A stretch of 64,000 nucleotides of DNA, from positions 169,812-233,811 of the forward strand of contig CAZBMV010000001.1 of the NCBI GenBank assembly GCA_964493145.1. The letters run 5' to 3'. Position 1 is the first letter of the stretch; the number at the start of each line of letters is the position of its first letter. The translations under genes were made by a program, and so were the position numbers. The DNA comes from an uncultured Candidatus Saccharibacteria bacterium (lineage in GTDB: Bacteria; Patescibacteriota; Minisyncoccia; Phycocordibacterales; UBA918). The notes under the pieces were generated by a model. That model made no database searches and was not told where the DNA came from. It saw nothing but the letters and a program-made list of their open reading frames with translations. Positions 25,158 through 63,274 of this stretch are shown piece after piece.

Positions 25158-26162
25158 ATGAAAAGCACAGTATCTGGATTTTTCTGTACATTTGCTATAG
25201 CGATGCTTTTTGCATTACCAACTCAAATACAAGCGCAAACGGTTGCGACACCAACAATTGAAGAACTACGACAGCAAATCGCTGATTTGACTAGAATACT
25301 TAACCATCTTCTCTCAAATCAGTCCAAACAATCAAATTCAAGTGCTACGATTTCTACCACACAGGGTAATATGTGTAATTATGCACGCTCTATTACAAAA
25401 ACTCTCGCACAAGGAATGGTTGACCCACAAGTGACAATTCTTCAAAAATTTCTTAATCTGTCTGGCATACCTGTGGCAGTAAGTGGGCAGGGTTCGTCTG
25501 GGAATGAGACAAACTACTTTGGTCAAGGAACGAAATACGCTGTGCAATTGTGGCAAACAAAAAACAATGTGGTTTCCAGTGGTACACCTGAAACCACTGG
25601 CTATGGTGTTGTCGGTATGAGGACAAGGACAGCAATGCAAACGGTAAGTTGTAATACAGTTCCACAAAATGATAATGACATCGTGTGTACCACAGATGCA
25701 CGACGTTGCCCAGATGGTTCATACGTCTCGCGCGTCGCACCTACGTGTGAGTTCGCTGCATGTCCTGCAATTCCAACAGCATCAATCACAAGCAACCTTA
25801 CTGCAACAGTAAATAAAGCAAAGATTATTTCAGGTACCGCTACAAATGTTAACTCAGTTTACATGGTCATAACTAGGCCAAACGGAAGTGTTATTAATAC
25901 CGACATTGCGGTAGCAAATGGCTTGTGGTCGTATAACTATCCAGCAAGTACGTTTACTGTTGCAGGTAATTACCTTATAACTATTCGCGCTAATACGTAC
26001 AACGGTACCATACTCACTACTGGTACGTTAGTAGTAAGTAGTGATGACATCGTGTGTACCACAGATGCACGACGTTGCCCAGATGGTTCATACGTCTCGC
26101 GCGTCGCACCTACGTGTGAGTTCGCTGCATGTCCTGCAGGTTCCGGTAGTTCCGGTTGGTAA
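25158..26162 (+). CDS. secreted protein with peptidoglycan-binding (PG_binding_1-like) domain, Ig-like region and two identical Cys-rich modules
   Basis: signal peptide MKSTVSGFFCTFAIAMLFALPTQIQAQ; ..TILQKFLNLSGIPVAVSGQGSSGNETNYFGQGTKYAVQLWQ.. PG-binding-like; DDIVCTTDARRCPDGSYVSRVAPTCEFAACPA repeated twice. Confidence 0.6.
   Translation: MKSTVSGFFCTFAIAMLFALPTQIQAQTVATPTIEELRQQIADLTRILNHLLSNQSKQSNSSATISTTQGNMCNYARSITKTLAQGMVDPQVTILQKFLNLSGIPVAVSGQGSSGNETNYFGQGTKYAVQLWQTKNNVVSSGTPETTGYGVVGMRTRTAMQTVSCNTVPQNDNDIVCTTDARRCPDGSYVSRVAPTCEFAACPAIPTASITSNLTATVNKAKIISGTATNVNSVYMVITRPNGSVINTDIAVANGLWSYNYPASTFTVAGNYLITIRANTYNGTILTTGTLVVSSDDIVCTTDARRCPDGSYVSRVAPTCEFAACPAGSGSSGW
25675..25769 (+). repeat. 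95-bp exact direct repeat copy 1 (second copy 26044..26138) encoding the Cys-rich module
   Basis: identical nucleotide strings read directly; 369-bp period. Confidence 0.85.
26044..26138 (+). repeat. 95-bp exact direct repeat copy 2
   Basis: identical to 25675..25769. Confidence 0.85.
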
Positions 26163-53042: not shown

Positions 53043-54554
53043 TTATGGTGCGACGACAGAATCGCCCTCATTAAGTCCCTCAATGTGCGCGTAGCCGTCA
53101 TTGCCCTGCATGACAACGGTGACCGGTACCGAGCGTGTTTTCTTCTCATCGGGGACGAGTACGGAATACGTACCGTCGTCAGCCTCAACGAGAAATCGTT
53201 TTGGAATGCGAAGGACGTCTTCGTGTTTTTCAATAATGATATTGATGTCGGCGTTGAGTCCACCGCGCACCCACGGCTTTGGATCATCAAGGATAAGCGT
53301 CGTTTCAAAGTACGAAACGCCGGCAATCTCAGTCGCAACAGGTGAAATGTGGATAATGGTTGCGGTGAGGGGTTCTGTTGGCGCCGCGTCAAACACGACG
53401 TCCGCCTTTTGCCCCACAGCGATTTTCGTAATATTTATCTCGGGAATAATCGCCTCAATCTCAAAGTACCCTTCGGACACCATGGTGAGCACCGGCTCGG
53501 TAGTGACGATTTCTCCGGGTGCGAGATCAAGGTGGGTGACGGTACCGTCAAACGGCGCTCTTAAAATGTGATCTTGTATCTGCGCACCGATTGAAGCAAG
53601 TTGCGCTTCCGCCTGCGTGACTTGCGCTTCTTTGCGGATTACCGACTCCTCCCGTGGATTTGCGATTGTGAGTGTTGCGGTCTTTTCGGCGAGTTCAAGC
53701 GCCTGTGTTGCCGCATGGATTGCGTTTTCACGTGTGGTGACGGCGAGGTCGTAGGCGTTTTTGTTGGTAACGTATGACGTGCTTTCGGTGTTCGGTATCG
53801 CAATGTGCCACACCGATCCGCCGTACGAGACTCCATCCTCAAATTGGATTGAGAGACCACACGCGCCCATGGGAGCCGGTGACTCCGTGTACGCGGTGTA
53901 GGTACCACCTTCAAGTCCGGAGAGTCGGTACGAGTAACCGGATTTTGCGCCCGAGCCGAACACATCAAGAATGTACGTACCTTCCCCGCACGTGTACGTA
54001 CCGTACACTGATGGAGGCGTGTCCGCATTGCTTTTATCCTTAGGGCGTGCAACGAGGTCTGTTGAGAGGAGTGCACGGTATGCGGTCGCCACCTTTTCAT
54101 TTTGCTCGCGGGTAATACGCGAGAGGTCATCCTTCGCTATTTCCACCTTAGTCGTTTCAATCGCACGCTCTTCCGGTCTGATGCCGGTGATGAGTTCCGC
54201 TTGGTCCGCTTTCGCGATGACGAGTGCGCCGTACGCGTTTTGGTACTGCGCGCTGAGGTTGTCGTGCGCGAGTTCTGCGAGGACAGTATCCTTCTTTACG
54301 AAAGCACCCTCCGCAACCGAGAGCGACTTGAGTACTCCGGTGATAGGGAAACTCAGGTCAGCATTCCGGGTTGCGTCCACGGTACCGGAGACGGTGATGC
54401 TCGTCGCGACCGTTCCATTTTCCACTTTCCCCAAAGTCCACTCAGGCTCACCGTTCTTTGAGCGGACAATGGTAACTACGATAATAAAAATTATGACCGC
54501 CGATACGGTGGTGAGTATTTTCCTCTTCCGGAGGAACGTGATGATCTTTTGCAT
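53043..54554 (-). CDS. efflux periplasmic adaptor (HlyD/MacA family) with large inserted domain
   Basis: N-terminal TM anchor, coiled-coil and beta-barrel regions; start at MQKIITFL; the ORF-track 5' extension runs through a tRNA gene. Confidence 0.7.
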   Translation of the reverse strand: MQKIITFLRKRKILTTVSAVIIFIIVVTIVRSKNGEPEWTLGKVENGTVATSITVSGTVDATRNADLSFPITGVLKSLSVAEGAFVKKDTVLAELAHDNLSAQYQNAYGALVIAKADQAELITGIRPEERAIETTKVEIAKDDLSRITREQNEKVATAYRALLSTDLVARPKDKSNADTPPSVYGTYTCGEGTYILDVFGSGAKSGYSYRLSGLEGGTYTAYTESPAPMGACGLSIQFEDGVSYGGSVWHIAIPNTESTSYVTNKNAYDLAVTTRENAIHAATQALELAEKTATLTIANPREESVIRKEAQVTQAEAQLASIGAQIQDHILRAPFDGTVTHLDLAPGEIVTTEPVLTMVSEGYFEIEAIIPEINITKIAVGQKADVVFDAAPTEPLTATIIHISPVATEIAGVSYFETTLILDDPKPWVRGGLNADINIIIEKHEDVLRIPKRFLVEADDGTYSVLVPDEKKTRSVPVTVVMQGNDGYAHIEGLNEGDSVVAP

Positions 54555-54607: not shown

Positions 54608-54629
54608 TTCGTTCGTTTAAACGAACGAA
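54608..54629. repeat. 22-bp perfect palindrome TTCGTTCGTTTAAACGAACGAA upstream of the adaptor/ABC efflux operon
   Basis: self-complementary; core TTCGTTTAAACGAA identical to core of 14111..14158 palindrome (coordinates may be off by 1). Confidence 0.7.
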
Positions 54630-54642
54630 ATCAAGTGGTGTT

Positions 54643-54746
54643 TTTGTCCGTCCTCTTGGACTCGAACAAAGGACCACCGAGGTATATAAAATTAAAAAAT
54701 CCTTTGTCCGCCCGCTTGGACTTGAACCAAGGACCACCGAGGTATA
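54643..54746 (-). repeat. two tandem degenerate copies (~45-58 nt each) of the 3' half (anticodon loop to acceptor end) of the adjacent tRNA
   Basis: TATACCTCgGtGGTCCTTtGTTCGAGTCCAAGAGGACGGACAAA and TATACCTCgGtGGTCCTTGGTTCaAGTCCAAGcGGgCGGACAAA vs tRNA 3' half. Confidence 0.75.
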
Positions 54747-54762
54747 GAAATTCAAATTTTTG

Positions 54763-54836
54763 TCCGTCCTCTTGGACTCGAACCAAGGACCGCAGAGGTA
54801 TAAGCTCTGTGCTCTAACCAACTGAGCTAAGGACGG
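54763..54836 (-). tRNA. tRNA with anticodon UAU (formally Ile, AUA-reading); 74 nt, C1-G72, no encoded CCA
   Basis: cloverleaf by eye: CCGTCCT-TA-GCTC-AGTTGGTTA-GAGC-A-CAGAG-CTTATAC-CTCTG-CGGTC-CTTGG-TTCGAGT-CCAAG-AGGACGG-A. Confidence 0.55.
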
Positions 54837-54993
54837 ACAAAAATTTTAATTTATACAAGTTTCTCTCGCTCGGTTATGAAAATAAACTTTTTCATAACGC
54901 TCGCTCGTTCACTTGTAAGCCGAACACCTGCATGATTTTCTCACACAGGCGGACACAAAAACTATAGCGTAGTGTTTCTTCAAAAACAACAGG

Positions 54994-55027
54994 ATACGAG
55001 AAAAGGCCGACGCACAGCGTCGGCCTT
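54994..55027 (-). terminator. minus-strand rho-independent terminator (AAGGCCGACGcacagCGTCGGCCTT + TTTTCTCGT)
   Basis: read directly. Confidence 0.55.
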
Positions 55028-55169
55028 CCCAGATACAGGATCACCCCCTTTCGTTATCAGGTTTCTTCGCAGAGAAATATTTTTTGATCACGATGGCACC
55101 TCCTGTATGCTGGTTGAGAGGGAACTGCTACGTATCAGCGTAGTATTTCAACTCTCTGAAGTCAAGGAA

Positions 55170-55209
55170 AAAGCAATGAAAAAAGCCGACCAGTGTCATA
55201 TAGTCGGCT
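55170..55209 (-). terminator. minus-strand rho-independent terminator (AGCCGAC..GTCGGCT + TTTTTTCATT)
   Basis: read directly. Confidence 0.55.
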
Positions 55210-55227
55210 TCGTAATCTTTCGCTCGT

Positions 55228-55404
55228 TCAGGCGTGTGCCATCGCTTTTTCCCTCGCCTGAGCGTGCCGCTCGGGAAGCATAAGCCGGTGGCAGTGCCTC
55301 CTGTCGGCAAGCTCCGGCGTATTGGGAGATGGTGGCTTCTGCTGCTTTTTGTGAATGAGAAGAAAAAGAGCGAGTTGCCAAAGATCATTTCCGTGATACT
55401 CCAT
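55228..55404 (-). CDS. small hypothetical protein (58 aa) with one hydrophobic helix, strong SD
   Basis: AAGGAGG 5 nt upstream of ATG; MEYHGNDLWQLALFLLIHKKQQKPPSP.. Confidence 0.35.
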   Translation of the reverse strand: MEYHGNDLWQLALFLLIHKKQQKPPSPNTPELADRRHCHRLMLPERHAQAREKAMAHA

Positions 55405-55478
55405 GACAACCTCCTTTGAGATTGTGTCCACATGGGCACAGCTCAATAATGCTAGTGTTTTTGGTGTGTGTCAAGGTA

Positions 55479-55510
55479 AGAGAAAAGGCCGAGATGCGCG
55501 CATCTCGGCC
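55479..55510 (-). terminator. minus-strand rho-independent terminator (GGCCGAGATGcgcgCATCTCGGCC + TTTTCTCTT)
   Basis: 10-bp perfect stem read directly. Confidence 0.6.
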
Positions 55511-55770
55511 TTGGTTGATGTATGTACATGTGCCACGTGCACAGGTCTTTTGACCTGTGTCCTAGATCACCTAGGGCGGTTTTCTTATGGGCATGGCGTC
55601 TCCTTGGCGAAGAACAGATGCCGGGGTCGCCCCCCGAAACTTCCGGTGGCGACCCCGCGGCGACCGCGGCACCTCTTATCACGGTGACGACGGGGTGCGG
55701 GCGCGCTCCACCGACGGTGGCGGATGCGGGCCCGAGGTGCCAGTGTTGCGGGCTTGGCTACCGGTGCCGA

Positions 55771-55845
55771 TTAGGCGCCGATAACCTGGCCGATGTTGAT
55801 GCCGATGAAGTTGGTTTCCAGACTCTCGTCGTGAATCTTCTTCAC
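55771..55845 (-). CDS. tiny ORF (24 aa, GTG start, GGAGGG SD): MKKIHDESLETNFIGINIGQVIGA
   Basis: SD-like GGAGGG 6 nt upstream of GTG; followed by ~250-nt GC-rich region and a terminator. Confidence 0.25.
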   Translation of the reverse strand: MKKIHDESLETNFIGINIGQVIGA

Positions 55846-55974
55846 TGCAACCCTCCAAGAATGTATCCACATGGACACCCTTTCATGGTACCATATCCAA
55901 AATTTCTGTCAATAGCAAAAAATGTGTTGAAATGTATGGGTTTTAAAGCCGGCGCCCGAAGGGCGCCGGCTTCA

Positions 55975-58227
55975 CTACTCCATGTGGAGTGTCTCAGTGA
56001 GACGAAGTGCTTTTGCACGAATAGGTGCGTGGTGCGAAAGTTCGGGGTCATACTCTACGAGCGTGTGTGCCTCATCACGCGCCGCCTCTACTAATTTGAT
56101 GTTTTTGATTGCCTCCATGCCGAGGTCGGTGAGTCCCGATTGCCGAGCGCCGTAGAGTTCACCCGAACCGCGGAAGGCGAGATCGTACTCGGCGAGGTCA
56201 AAGCCACTCTTCGCGGTTGTGAGGGCGGTGAGGCGCTCTTTCGTCTTCTCACTTTTACTCTCCGTTACGACGAAGCAGTACGGCTGGTGCGTACCGCGGA
56301 TCACGCGCCCGCGGAGTTGGTGGAGCTGTGCGAGCCCGAAGCGTTCCGCACCTTCTATGATGATGTCGGTTGCATTGGGGACGTTGACGCCGACCTCAAC
56401 GACAGACGTTGCGACGAGGATGTCGGTTTCGTGTCGCGCGAAGGCGTCCATGACTTTTTCCTTTTCCGTCGGTTTCATTTTGCTATGCAAAATTGCAATG
56501 CGGTGTTTCGGGAATACGTGTTCCTTGAGGCGCTTCGCCTCGGCAATGACCGATTTCGCATTCACCGCCGTTTCTTTTTCCGGGTCGGGTTCTTCTATGC
56601 GCGGGCAAATGACGTACGCCTGTCTCCCCTCGGCAAGTTCTCGCCGTACGTGCTCGTACATGGCGTCTTCTTTTCCTTTAGTGACAATCGTCGTGATGAC
56701 CGGCTTTCGTCCCTTCGGCATTTCATCAAGGAGCGTGATGTCCAAATCACCATATATGGTGAGCGCAAGGGTGCGGGGAATGGGCGTTGCGGTCATGGAG
56801 AGGAGGTGTGGCATTCGCGCGTCCTTTTTTGCGAGCGCTTTTCGCTGGTTGGTGCCGAAGCGATGCTGTTCGTCAATAATGACGAGCGCGAGGTGCTTGA
56901 ATTCGACCGATTTGTACATGAGTGCGTGCGTGCCGATGAGGATAGGTATCTCACCATTCTTCACCCACTTTACGAGTTGCGCTTTTGATATCTTCGTTGC
57001 TTTCGTTGGATCGGTTTTTGAGGGGAACTTCATGCACCCGCTTCCCGTAATGAGACCGATTTGGATAGGGAGGTGCTTGAAGTACTGAATGAACGACTCA
57101 AAGTGTTGCTTTGCAAGGATTTCTGTAGGAGCCATGTAGGCAACCTGGAGGTTTCCAAATTCTAAATTATCCACTGAGTTGCCCGAGGAAAGACCTCGGG
57201 CAAGGTTTTGTTGTTGTGGGCGGGAGGTTGCTGTTGCGTACGCAACTGTCGCGGCGACGGCTGTCTTGCCACTTCCGACGTCTCCCTCAAGGAGTCGCGA
57301 CATGGGGCACTCACCGTTCACGTCCTTAAAGATGTTTGCGATGGCTTTTTTTTGCGCGTTCGTGAGTGGAAAAGGGAACCGTTCCGTGAATGCAGAAATG
57401 TGTGTGGGGTTGGTCTCAAATGTGTAACTTTGTGCGCCACGAATATGAGCGCGCGAAAGCGCTTGCGCCACCTGAATGTAGAAGACCTCCTCAAAGGCGA
57501 AGCGCTTTCGCGCGCTCATCGCATGATCCGCCTTCTTCGGCGTGTGAATCCACTGGAGTGCGGTGCGGAGCGTGGGGAGGTTGTACCGTTTCAACATACT
57601 CTCGGAGAGCGGATCGTCCATGCGCTCAAGGATTCCATACTCAAAACATTTCAGTATCGTGTGGTAGAACCACTTTGAGGTAATGCCCTTCGTCTCCCGA
57701 TACACGGGATAGATGGTCTCGTCGTGCGCACCGGTACCTTTGAAGATTGAATCGTGCCTATCTATGGGAAGCGTATCAAGTTTCTCCACTTCCGGATTAG
57801 CGATGTAGAGTTTTCCTTCGCTCCCCGTCACCTTGCCGACGAGCTTGACGTACATACCGTCGGTGAGCATTTTTGCGAGGTACGGTTGGTTGAACCACAT
57901 GATTTTGATGCGCGCGGAACCGTCTTCTATCCACCCTTCAGCAATAGGCACCTTACTTCGCCATGCCTTCCGCGTCTTGAGTCCCCCCAATTGACCAAAC
58001 ACGATTGCATCTTGCCCCTTTGTGAGGCCGCCGACCGACTGAATGTCACTTACGTCTTCGTAGCGCTGAGGAAGGTGATAGAGGAGGTTTTCAATGGTTA
58101 CGATGCCAAGCCGAATGAGCGCTTTTTGGTGGGTGGCATCAATGCGGAAATGTTTTGTGAGGGGATCAGAGGGGTGCACCCCATTAAACGGTCGCTTTGA
58201 ATGTTTGTAATCCCGTTCTTGTTGCAT
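55975..58227 (-). CDS. recG: ATP-dependent DNA helicase RecG
   Basis: 750 aa; wedge domain, helicase motifs (GDVGSGKT, DEQHRFG), typical RecG C-terminus. Confidence 0.9.
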   Translation of the reverse strand: MQQERDYKHSKRPFNGVHPSDPLTKHFRIDATHQKALIRLGIVTIENLLYHLPQRYEDVSDIQSVGGLTKGQDAIVFGQLGGLKTRKAWRSKVPIAEGWIEDGSARIKIMWFNQPYLAKMLTDGMYVKLVGKVTGSEGKLYIANPEVEKLDTLPIDRHDSIFKGTGAHDETIYPVYRETKGITSKWFYHTILKCFEYGILERMDDPLSESMLKRYNLPTLRTALQWIHTPKKADHAMSARKRFAFEEVFYIQVAQALSRAHIRGAQSYTFETNPTHISAFTERFPFPLTNAQKKAIANIFKDVNGECPMSRLLEGDVGSGKTAVAATVAYATATSRPQQQNLARGLSSGNSVDNLEFGNLQVAYMAPTEILAKQHFESFIQYFKHLPIQIGLITGSGCMKFPSKTDPTKATKISKAQLVKWVKNGEIPILIGTHALMYKSVEFKHLALVIIDEQHRFGTNQRKALAKKDARMPHLLSMTATPIPRTLALTIYGDLDITLLDEMPKGRKPVITTIVTKGKEDAMYEHVRRELAEGRQAYVICPRIEEPDPEKETAVNAKSVIAEAKRLKEHVFPKHRIAILHSKMKPTEKEKVMDAFARHETDILVATSVVEVGVNVPNATDIIIEGAERFGLAQLHQLRGRVIRGTHQPYCFVVTESKSEKTKERLTALTTAKSGFDLAEYDLAFRGSGELYGARQSGLTDLGMEAIKNIKLVEAARDEAHTLVEYDPELSHHAPIRAKALRLTETLHME

Positions 58228-62203: not shown

Positions 62204-62503
62204 TTAGTTTTTGTGTTGCTCGTTAAATTTAGGGCCTTCTTTTTTAATTATCTGTTTTTCTACTTGTAGCGCCCGCGGCTTATCTTTAACTTGGGCGATT
62301 TTGAATTTGGTTCCACCAGGGATGTGGTCTTTCTTGAACTTTAGATGATCTGTAAGACGTTGTTGGACATTCCCGCGACCTGCGACACCCGTGTATAGAT
62401 TTTTTCCAGCGCCATTTGTAATTTCATACACAATCGCCTTGTTTTTTGGTACGTTTCCTACGTTGGTCTTATTGAATTTCTGAGGACGATTGAACTTTGG
62501 CAT
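62204..62503 (-). CDS. small GIY-YIG nuclease-domain protein
   Basis: start MPKFNRP; KAIVYEITNGAGKNLYTGVAGRGNVQQRLTDHLKFKK = GIY / YIG / R..H..motifs; ORF-track 5' extension not supported. Confidence 0.65.
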   Translation of the reverse strand: MPKFNRPQKFNKTNVGNVPKNKAIVYEITNGAGKNLYTGVAGRGNVQQRLTDHLKFKKDHIPGGTKFKIAQVKDKPRALQVEKQIIKKEGPKFNEQHKN

Positions 62504-62535
62504 GGTATTTATGTTAGCGAATAAATATGTGGATA

Positions 62536-62573
62536 AAGTATACTTGCTCCTGCATGATGTTTCAAGTATACTC
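62536..62573. promoter_or_regulatory. two 10-bp palindromes AAGTATACTT 28 bp apart in the divergent GIY-YIG / LexA-like promoter region (candidate operators)
   Basis: AAAGTATACTTG...CAAGTATACTCA read directly. Confidence 0.5.
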
Positions 62574-62608
62574 AAATTGTATTTGAAAGAGATTTGAAAG
62601 TCAACCAT

Positions 62609-63274
62609 ATGATAACCCCAAAACAGAAGCAAATATACGACTTCATTGTTTCGTATTCCAAAGAGCACGGTTCCTCGCCCTCTTTGGAGGAGATTGCAGG
62701 CCATTTTGACTTTCTACAATACCCGTCATCGGCGCACTACCATGTTAAGAAGCTCCAAAGTGAGGGGTATTTGGAGCGCGAATCAAACCGACCACGTTCT
62801 ATTGGTATCTACGCGGATAAAACGGTCAAGACACCGATCTTTAGGAAAACTGGAATGGACGCGGTGCGAGTCCCGGTACTCGGTGCGGCAAACGCCGGAC
62901 CAGCAACACTCTTTGCGGAAGAGAATGTAGCCGGTTACTTAAAAGTGTCTCGTAGTACGCTCAATCGCCGCGACGGCGTTTTCGCGTTGCGCGTTGAGGG
63001 CGACTCTATGAACTGTGCAAAGATTGATGGAAAGAATCTTGAAGAAGGCGACTTCGTGCTAATTGACTCAACGTACCGAACGCCAAGAAATGGAGATTAT
63101 GTGCTTTCCGTTATTGACGATTGTGCGAATCTAAAGAAATTTCAAAGAGATCCGAAGACTGGGAATGTCATGCTTGTTTCTGAATCAAAAAATCCCAAAC
63201 ATAAGCCAATATATGTTTCGAGTGATGACGATTATATGGTCAATGGAAAGATCATTAAAGTGATAAAGAAATAA
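62609..63274 (+). CDS. LexA-family repressor (winged-HTH + S24 self-cleaving peptidase domain)
   Basis: N-terminal wHTH (..SLEEIAGHF..); Ala-Gly cleavage-site region (VLGAANAGPATLF), catalytic GDSM serine and downstream Lys (LKKF). Confidence 0.8.
   Translation: MITPKQKQIYDFIVSYSKEHGSSPSLEEIAGHFDFLQYPSSAHYHVKKLQSEGYLERESNRPRSIGIYADKTVKTPIFRKTGMDAVRVPVLGAANAGPATLFAEENVAGYLKVSRSTLNRRDGVFALRVEGDSMNCAKIDGKNLEEGDFVLIDSTYRTPRNGDYVLSVIDDCANLKKFQRDPKTGNVMLVSESKNPKHKPIYVSSDDDYMVNGKIIKVIKK

Follow-up and report, generated by a model that had tools for sequence, protein, structure and literature searches.

The gene for transfer RNA (tRNA)-Ile with the anticodon UAU is surrounded by pieces of related tRNA genes in a stretch of 64,000 nucleotides (nt) from an uncultured Candidatus Saccharibacteria bacterium (contig CAZBMV010000001.1), referred to below as the window. 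We believe, at a probability of about 0.75, that this locus is a stack of three generations of a single tRNA-Ile(UAU) gene, which arose from two nested cassette insertions. The innermost gene, here called tRNA2, is complete. Two 3' half-copies follow it in tandem, a decayed 5' half precedes it, and a syntenic relative still carries an intact gene where the window has the first of the half-copies. An initial annotation had read the half-copies as attachment-site scars left by a tyrosine integrase.

Results

The active tRNA gene and its half-copies

The active gene tRNA2 lies at 54836..54763 on the minus strand, as do all parts of the locus described below. It is 74 nt long, with a C1-G72 pair, the discriminator A73 and no encoded CCA. 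ARAGORN called a single tRNA in the 64-kb window, a tRNA-Ile with the anticodon TAT at 54762..54836 (-), and the Rfam tRNA model RF00005 gave 68.2 bits over 54763..54836 against a threshold of 29. Direct reading of the sequence yields the acceptor strands CCGTCCT/AGGACGG and a 5' half CCGTCCT...CAGAG, and the cloverleaf recovered by both programs is that of a bacterial elongator tRNA-Ile(UAU). The programs and the reading agree with the initial annotation on a 74-nt minus-strand tRNA with a UAU anticodon and C1-G72. Its remark that UAU is rare in bacteria does not hold for this lineage, where related loci carry this anticodon throughout (n = 102). Each related Patescibacteria locus scanned contains one tRNA-Ile(UAU), except the truncated locus L020 (loci are numbered with the prefix L), and C1-G72 is common to nearly all of these genes. 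Judged from the sequences, UAU is the normal anticodon of the AUA decoder in the clade and no oddity. That the tRNA is charged with isoleucine and reads AUA may be supposed by analogy only, from its likeness to the case of Mycoplasma mobile (PMC3575796).

Two tandem partial copies lie downstream of tRNA2, within a few bases of where the initial annotation had put them (54703..54746 and 54643..54688). Both copy 2 (54746..54707, T34 to A73) and copy 3 (54686..54647) begin at T34 of the anticodon (TATACC...) and extend to the discriminator. The A/T-rich spacers between tRNA2 and copy 2 and between copy 2 and copy 3 measure 16 and 20 nt. A repeat search grouped the three segments into one family with spacings of 56 and 60 nt. 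A 31-nt probe for the T arm and acceptor strand, allowing up to 3 mismatches, found only these three sites in 64 kb (0 expected, 100 shuffles), and a 5'-half probe had a single match in the window.

The half-copies differ in detail. The acceptor strand of copy 2 is CGGGCGG, and in a tRNA formed from the relics its specific sequence, CTCGGUGG, would be joined to a CCGCCUG 5' half. Copy 3 has one mismatch in the T stem and the acceptor strand AGGACGG, which belongs to the CCGTCCT allele. The first 12 nt of copy 3 (CTCGGTGG) are the anticodon-stem strand of copy 2, joined to the acceptor strand of the older allele; this mosaic suggests a short gene-conversion tract from copy 2.

One simple source of such an array would be local tandem duplication of the 3' half and its spacer, by slippage or unequal crossing-over, with no foreign DNA involved. 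Tandem Repeats Finder indeed reports a period of 60 nt with 2.8 copies, a score of 229 and a match of 83%, and copies 2 and 3 have CTCGGTGG in common where tRNA2 has CTCTGCGG. The comparison with relatives speaks differently.

An intact gene in place of copy 2 in a syntenic relative

Syntenic relatives were found through homologues of the MacA encoded in the window (P0002, 88% identity; P0003, 82%). The order RecG, small open reading frames (ORFs), tRNA locus, MacA, MacB, ABC and FtsH is kept in both of these relatives. Around the tRNA, it is kept in relatives with MacA 59-88% identical, including those with a plain tRNA gene (L103, L108). The relative with MacA at 82%, L107, is the informative one. 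Its locus runs from a TATAGT promoter through a 5' relic, a hairpin X of type A, TA, a leader (spL), an intact tRNA gene (tRNA1), a trailer (spR), TA and a 3' relic to macA.

A global alignment of the window with L107 paired tRNA with tRNA and so masked the orthology, which was resolved by a segment-wise identity matrix. Copy 2 is identical to the 3' half of L107 tRNA1 (42/42), and together with its trailer it matches the L107 3' half plus spR at 59/60; to the adjacent tRNA2 it is identical at only 37/42. The trailer concerned (CAAAGGATTTTTTAATTTTA, 54687..54706) taken by itself agrees at 19/20 with the spR of the intact L107 tRNA. Copy 3 agrees at 38/42 with the L107 3' relic, which holds the equal position beside macA, and that relic agrees at 41/42 with the 3' half of tRNA2 of the window. 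L107 therefore has an intact tRNA gene in place of copy 2. Copy 2 is thus the relic 3' half of a former resident gene, tRNA1, followed by the old trailer of that gene, and copy 3 is read as the relic 3' half of the oldest resident.

Since copy 2 and its trailer match the intact tRNA1 of L107, the window has one extra insertion relative to L107. The additional DNA comprises 169 nt (54915..54747) and sits at the anticodon TA of tRNA1, with T34A35 duplicated on both sides. It consists of a hairpin X of type B (60 nt), TA, spL (17 nt), tRNA2 (74 nt) and spR (16 nt). At the corresponding place the hairpin is of type A in L107 and of type B in the window; because L107 has its type A hairpin upstream of the intact gene, the type B hairpin is new material.

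These results leave little room for local tandem duplication. The spacers are unlike each other, as spR pairs with spL and the old trailer resembles L107 spR. Copy 2 is closer to a different, intact allele in L107 than to the gene beside it. The type B hairpin is new sequence relative to L107, and 5' relics with the complementary breakpoint lie upstream in 25 of 76 related loci. We regard slippage or unequal crossing-over as scarcely credible here.

The upstream side of the window shows a decayed 5' relic of an older tRNA-Ile gene (54916..54952). It consists of CCGCCTGT (nt 1-8), a 24-nt replaced core that folds as a small hairpin, and GCTTA (nt 31-35). Its acceptor strand CCGCCTG pairs with that of copy 2 (CGGGCGG) and not with tRNA2. 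It stops after ..GCTTA, that is at A35, the endpoint of 15 of the 17 genuine 5' relics elsewhere. The module of nt 1-9 plus hairpin recurs in L009, L028, L037 and L044.

The cassette

Hairpin X of type B (54856..54915, CAAGTG...AACTTG) forms the left part of the inserted cassette. It scores 75.1 bits (E = 1.3e-20) with the covariance model R2 and is the sole match in the window. Base pairing in X is under constraint: in type A, 14 of 20 pairs show compensatory changes, 94.6% of the cells are paired and 0 of 500 shuffles did as well. A tandem GA/GA internal loop is invariant in type A, and a G.U is conserved there. In type B, the subfamily of the window, 12 of 21 pairs are compensatory. Most copies of X have CA at the start and TG at the end, with TA on the flanks in most cases.

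TA and the 17-nt leader spL (TAAATTAAAATTTTTGT) follow X at 54837..54855, and the 16-nt trailer spR (CAAAAATTTGAATTTC, 54747..54762) forms the right end of the cassette. Leader and trailer are complementary, and their helix extends the acceptor stem; with the acceptor stem included, the inverted repeat in the window measures 26 nt and is 92% complementary. The minimum-free-energy fold encloses the tRNA in this leader-trailer stem, and the whole unit folds with z = -6.5 against shuffled sequence. By inspection, anticodon stem, X and leader-trailer stem form a three-way arrangement at the junction. The cassette parts are homologous across lineages, and the leader-trailer helix is likewise constrained: 5 of its 16 pairs are compensatory across lineages and an A.G mismatch is conserved.

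Searches of Rfam, at the gathering threshold and at E up to 10, returned only tRNA and transfer-messenger RNA (tmRNA), with other matches far below threshold and no family for the repeats or for X. By eye, X gave no convincing match to a hammerhead, a kink-turn or a box C/D motif. Covariance-model searches of about 830 kb placed X nearly always at tRNA-Ile loci, with one dispersed copy (L045:6904-6962); within relics, X sometimes lies in the antisense direction.

Some of these features recall miniature inverted-repeat transposable elements (MITEs) of the IS630/Tc1-mariner type. The cassette has terminal inverted repeats, is small (169 nt) and contains no ORF, and a TA target-site duplication is indicated by the junction statistics and again when the window, where the site is filled, is set against L107, where it is intact. 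Many dispersed copies at unrelated TA sites, a further mark of such elements, were not found in the roughly 830 kb searched, where only L045 lies off the tRNA-Ile loci. As far as sequence can tell, the 2-bp TA duplication, inverted-repeat ends, lack of an ORF and strand-specific hairpin constraints fit a non-autonomous element moved in trans. It could be mobilised by a DDE transposase that duplicates TA and works in trans, by a serine recombinase whose crossover is at TA, or by a single-strand transposase specific for hairpins.

Recurrence in Paceibacteria

A scan with a degenerate 42-nt pattern of the 3' half retrieved 37 loci in species-representative genomes and 65 in metagenomes, 102 in total. 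All 37 species-representative loci belong to Patescibacteria/Paceibacteria (Kaiserbacteria, Nomurabacteria, Zambryskibacteria and relatives). The tRNA of each locus was then compared with its own flanks in 76 non-redundant loci that extend for 250 nt or more on either side of it. Relic halves accompany the tRNA in 34 of the 76 (about 45%), and 42 are plain. Relics lie on both sides of the gene in 22 loci, only on the 3' side in 9 and only on the 5' side in 3.

The same architecture recurs: a 5'-half copy (nt 1-35), X (54-73 nt), TA, spL, an intact tRNA, spR, TA and a 3'-half copy (nt 34-74). The breakpoints are precise. The 5' relic retains exactly T34A35 after T33 in 15 of 17 genuine cases, and the 3' relic begins exactly at T34 in 26 of 37 distinct copies, the remainder mostly differing only by a T36G change. 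With A35 as the last base of 5' copies and T34 as the first of 3' copies, the relics overlap by TA, which is 2 bp.

Relic number ranges from none to three and varies among close relatives. Locus L086 contains three layers in perfectly concentric order, and the tRNA at its centre belongs to another allele (GGGCGTG...CACGCCCACCA). L006 has this allele in an outer relic, and L038 has a diverged version of it there. In L006, L038 and L086, as in the window, the inner and outer layers carry different alleles. Many relics are truncated or decayed, and some related loci retain 5' fragments of nt 1-14, 8-20 or 12-35 only. L025, L036, L059 and L068 have 3' relics and the native promoter directly on the tRNA, so that the 5' layer is gone.

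The flanking signals indicate which layer is the older. In the window, a -10-like box TATAGT (54961..54966, context actacgcTATAGTtttt) is the probable promoter of the whole nested unit. The box, as ..gcgnTATAGTt.., stands 16-30 nt upstream of the plain tRNA-Ile genes in L046, L059 and L068, and the same box stands upstream of the outermost 5' half in the nested loci L078, L080, L091, L107 and L110. In nested loci, the usual terminator and downstream motif come after the outermost 3' half. Because promoter/leader and terminator contexts flank the outermost halves, these halves represent the original gene, and it is the inner tRNA that was inserted.

The downstream motif itself is a conserved stretch of about 110-130 nt, 30-80 nt downstream of many tRNA-Ile(UAU) genes and usually past a terminator-like hairpin. 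It reads tGTCCGAGnCGGAGCGATG ... CGAGCCGGGGTCGC ... ACTTAG ... GTGACGACA and has no Rfam match. It was seen in L001, L002, L003, L013, L016, L017, L021, L026, L032, L037, L085 and L103 (L103:3640-3815, minus) and is absent from the window. Its ends resemble the leader/5' end and the 3' end of the tRNA itself, and L052 and L059 have a copy within the T loop of relic 3' halves.

The half-copies as possible functional RNA

The regularity of the nests raises the question whether the half-copies are functional RNA: parts of a spliced intron-containing or split tRNA, decoys, processing signals or terminator elements. Several observations lean this way. The relics are often 100% identical to the inner tRNA across lineages that differ in allele, including the same T-loop insert (L015, L025, L080). 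Compensatory changes occur in X and in the leader-trailer stem, G.A and G.U are conserved on the sense strand, and the precursor folds far better than shuffled sequence (z = -6.5). The three exposed loops that house the inserts (D, anticodon, T) are also the sites of non-canonical introns in archaea. Yet many relics are truncated or decayed, including the 5' relic of the window, and copy 3 has a T-stem mismatch, which leaves the outer halves of the window not both intact. Relic number changes from none to three among close relatives, and X also lies antisense inside relics. If rejoined, the relic halves would have an extra TA in the anticodon loop. A bulge-helix-bulge motif is not evident by inspection, and ARAGORN, run with introns up to 400 nt, called inner genes only. 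We know of no bacterial splicing endonuclease. An outer tRNA that works as a split or intron-bearing gene is unlikely from the sequence, and a functional role for the half-copies in general seems to us very improbable.

Further inserts and other tRNA genes

Relics also carry inserts in their D and T loops. One T-loop insert of relic 3' halves, Y, is about 56 nt long (CCACCACAAGGG...AAAACTAGGT) and occurs in L006:7800-7900, L015, L025 and L080. Another, W, measures about 95-110 nt and comprises a hairpin with the loop CTGGGAG, then CGCAAGACC, and an end ...GGTGTACAGAATCTGTAAGAT; it was found in L022, L038, L062 and L067, and a similar unit follows two different tRNA-Ser genes in L101:6960-7320. 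From their sequences the relic T-loop inserts look like further small structured elements that target tRNA loops.

The tRNA-Ser genes in L018, L070:4850-5280, L079, L094 and L101:6900-7560 are flanked by fragments of themselves, with nt 1-15 to nt 1-20 on the upstream side and the part from the T loop to the 3' end on the downstream side. Nested replacement probably reaches beyond tRNA-Ile and is likely to be general for tRNA genes in these genomes.

Integrase attachment sites reconsidered

In the initial annotation, the stacked 3' halves stood for repeated integration of tyrosine-integrase elements. Such elements would carry a tRNA 3' half in attP, would have integrated twice, and their islands would have been deleted almost wholly, leaving attR sites. 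The direct repeat of the tRNA 3' segment is present as expected. The repeats span the anticodon loop to the 3' end, and the anticodon loop is reportedly among the tRNA sublocations used for integrase crossover. In L006, repeats of the 3' half plus trailer enclose a segment of about 750 bp. Integration-derived tRNA gene fragments are, moreover, common in prokaryotes (PMC9897764).

An attP-borne 3' half would, however, keep the host 5' half, island DNA and a core the size of the loop, and the integrase explanation fails because the locus has none of them. The 5' half of tRNA2 is as new as its 3' half and differs from that of tRNA1, while the decayed older 5' relic (CCGCCTGT...GCTTA) lies upstream. 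A 45-nt attachment block or a 7-nt loop cannot serve as the core, as the shared core is the 2-bp TA. Only 16 and 20 nt separate the repeats, and the pairing of spR with the inner leader reaches as far as the TA, which is not expected from random deletion of an island.

The search for the elements themselves gave the same picture. No integrase, transposase or reverse transcriptase was detected among the 51 ORFs of the window compared with Pfam, in line with the initial annotation, which had also found no integrase gene. No second match more than 1 kb away occurs on the contigs of the 102 related loci, where whole-locus BLAST for distant relic copies returned L006 (750 bp) and two trivial matches only. 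The degenerate 42-nt pattern had 0 matches in viral contigs. A shorter pattern of the anticodon region matched one viral contig (L113, from IMG/VR), which is not a cassette carrier; L113:6100-7390 contains seven arrayed tRNA genes, one of them a tRNA-Ile(UAU) whose allele is unrelated.

The neighbouring genes do not behave as island remnants, which both the MacAB-type operon and the small-ORF cluster had been suspected to be. The operon belongs to the core synteny conserved in relatives with MacA 59-88% identical, including those with a plain tRNA, and the small-ORF cluster is part of the same RecG...FtsH synteny. The window at large is core genome, with a ribosomal-protein operon, EF-G/EF-Tu, SecY, IF3, FtsH, tmRNA, RecG, LexA and others. 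What stands of the earlier interpretation is repeated integration, in that the two stacked 3' halves represent two separate insertions with breakpoints in the anticodon loop; they did not arrive with integrase-borne islands. The array could also have been one conserved among relatives. The arrangement is indeed present there, with a relic number that varies too much (none to three) for a conserved functional array. We consider integrase elements an improbable source of these repeats.

Neighbouring features

The intrinsic terminator of the upstream small-ORF unit (GGAAGGCCGACGCTGTGCGTCGGCCTTTTC, 55000..55029, minus) marks the 5' limit of the tRNA transcription unit and is conserved in L103, L107 and L111. 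Directly before it, within 55000..55060 (-), AACGAAAGGGGGTGATCC is a near-perfect complement of the 3' end of 16S rRNA. L103, L107 and L111 conserve this motif at the nucleotide level but not the tiny ORF before it. The same 55000..55060 interval has a weak, sub-threshold Rfam match to CC2171 (33.7 bits vs 75). Further upstream, 55040..55975 (-) contains three very small transcription units with ORFs of about 33, 58 and 16 aa, each with a promoter-like box and a terminator. Of these ORFs, the one of 58 aa has a conserved counterpart in L107, and L103 has a similar stretch. A GC-rich, ORF-free stretch of about 200 nt lies at 55560..55770.

On the other side, a perfect 22-nt palindrome (TTCGTTCGTTTAAACGAACGAA, 54608..54629, minus) stands between the last relic and macA; from its sequence, it could be a terminator or an operator. 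The macA-like gene (53043..54554, minus) encodes an HlyD-family adaptor (Pfam HlyD_3, HlyD_D23) and is a conserved neighbour outside the element. A TATAAT box lies 6 nt before its start, and the macA mRNA may be leaderless.

Elsewhere in the window, a 334-aa ORF (25158..26162, +) lies between L5 and L6 in the ribosomal-protein operon. Its GC content is 0.40 against about 0.50, and it has no Pfam family, only a weak match to PG_binding_1. A small protein with a GIY-YIG nuclease domain (62204..62704, -) adjoins and overlaps a gene for a LexA-like repressor (62594..63274, +).

Discussion

Proposed history of the locus

We propose the following course of events for the locus. The oldest tRNA-Ile gene would have stood beside macA when a small non-autonomous cassette inserted at its anticodon TA (T34A35). 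In this cassette, hairpin X and TA would have been followed by a leader, a full tRNA-Ile(UAU) and a trailer with complementarity to that leader. This first insertion would have duplicated TA and moved the old 5' half upstream and the old 3' half, now copy 3, downstream, while tRNA1 took over. Later, a second cassette, the 169 nt at 54915..54747, would have entered tRNA1 at the same TA, leaving copy 2 and its trailer behind and making tRNA2 the working gene. Recombination between the direct 5' repeats may then have removed one 5' relic, the other may have decayed, and gene conversion may have blurred copy 3. The relics would be non-functional. Their decay would be slow, with partial homogenisation by gene conversion and trimming by recombination between repeats.

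The whole unit would be transcribed from the outer TATAGT promoter. The leader-trailer stem, possibly together with X, would prevent mispairing of the inner tRNA with the relic halves and offer a processing site, and RNase P, RNase Z and CCA addition would yield the mature tRNA. An insertion would thus inactivate the resident tRNA-Ile(UAU) and replace it in a single step, which would make it tolerated and then hard to lose. With a resident gene that is presumably essential and present only once, an insertion would survive only if it supplied a replacement.

Several observations weigh against this history. In L103, the nearest of the relatives retrieved (MacA 88%), tRNA1 is plain, has native flanks and runs on the opposite strand. 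The tRNA-Ile also lies on the opposite strand, divergent from macA, in L108 and L111 (L103:3860-3933, L108:2209-2282, L111:2278-2351), and the tRNA segment must therefore have been inverted or replaced in the course of its history, an event for which the model has no explanation. That the window gained an insertion, and not that L107 lost one by precise excision, is the order we infer. The window has two 3' relics and one decayed 5' relic, and a secondary deletion must therefore be assumed. In most nested loci of the flank comparison, and also in L110, the relic halves show 100% identity to the inner tRNA; recent spread within a population or gene conversion must account for this, and it could instead point to a local copying mechanism. 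X did not behave as an ordinary dispersed MITE, as its covariance-model matches lie almost only at tRNA-Ile loci, and no transposase or recombinase could be tied to the cassette, the 64-kb window itself containing none. Finally, the place of X is always 5' of the tRNA, and its G.A and G.U features are conserved in a strand-specific way, which hints at a role as RNA or as a single strand.

Significance

As far as we searched, nested cassette-type replacement of tRNA genes is widespread in Paceibacteria and undescribed; no description of nested or disrupted tRNA genes in Patescibacteria was found in the literature searched. Mobile DNA classically integrates at tRNA genes. Displaced tRNA fragments are routinely read as integrase scars, and they can stem from a different and much smaller process. 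As serial tRNA replacement leaves the same footprint, stacked tRNA halves are not evidence for lost islands. The layers form a fossil record of relative order, gene conversion and deletion, and could serve as a lineage marker. The locus also defines several conserved hairpins, X and the leader-trailer stem among them, that have no match in Rfam.

With about 45% of the sampled Paceibacteria tRNA-Ile loci nested, a testable addiction-like gene-replacement element emerges in genome-reduced bacteria of the candidate phyla radiation (CPR). More tentatively, and at somewhat less than even odds, Paceibacteria may harbour an undescribed class of minimal selfish tRNA replacement cassettes. These elements of about 170 bp, X plus a stem-clamped tRNA, would home into loops of resident essential tRNA genes, kill and replace the gene, become impossible to lose, and record their invasions as concentric relics. 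Their targets may be the anticodon TA for tRNA-Ile(UAU) and the D and T loops for other fragments and for tRNA-Ser. The strand-specific features of X and the preference for loops leave room for a route through single-strand DNA or RNA, such as reverse splicing or retro-homing, although we know of no such mechanism for bacterial tRNA genes.

Comparison with known systems

The integrative elements that target tRNA genes and leave attL/attR sites (PMC9897764) resemble the present case in their tRNA target, a breakpoint in the anticodon loop, a downstream 3' fragment and a gene that is functional after insertion. The cassette described here differs in that it measures about 170 bp, lacks an integrase and brings a whole tRNA, 5' half included, together with a hairpin. 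The 2-bp core, the additional 5' relic and the concentric stacking set it further apart.

The Correia elements of Neisseria are TA-duplicating miniature inverted-repeat elements derived from IS630/Tc1-mariner. Elements of this type share with the cassette a small size, the lack of an ORF, terminal inverted repeats (17-41 nt), TA flanks and transcripts that form long hairpins, and hairpin X has ends of the CA...TG type. In contrast to them, the copies found here are not dispersed, lie almost only in tRNA genes, carry a functional tRNA as cargo and conserve strand-specific mismatches.

In archaea, tRNA genes disrupted by mobile elements and split or permuted tRNAs have been described (Sugahara 2012, PMC3293823; Chan 2011, PMC3218864). 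Fragments beside an intact or intron-bearing copy, and insertions in the D, anticodon and T loops, are common to both situations. The archaeal genes depend on bulge-helix-bulge splicing and include working split genes, whereas here the host is bacterial, the outer pieces decay and the inner gene is complete.

Integron gene cassettes rely on folded attC sites, an integron integrase and attI. They too are small one-gene cassettes of the promoterless type with an imperfect hairpin and conserved unpaired bases, and their serial insertion at one site records past events. The present locus has no integron integrase or attI, and each insertion goes into the gene of the previous cassette, not next to it.

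Phage genomes measure tens of kb. In the tRNA-dependent lysogeny of mycobacteriophages, the integrating phage destroys a host tRNA gene and carries a complementing tRNA (Guerrero-Bustamante and Hatfull 2024, PMC10865867). There, as here, an essential host tRNA gene is destroyed by the insertion, in the phages owing to a short common core. The phages use a tyrosine integrase and a core of about 10 bp, whereas in the cassette the replacement tRNA makes up almost the whole element and lies inside the gene that it has split. By analogy, tRNA-dependent lysogeny would be the closest described logic to that of the nested tRNA-Ile(UAU) genes.

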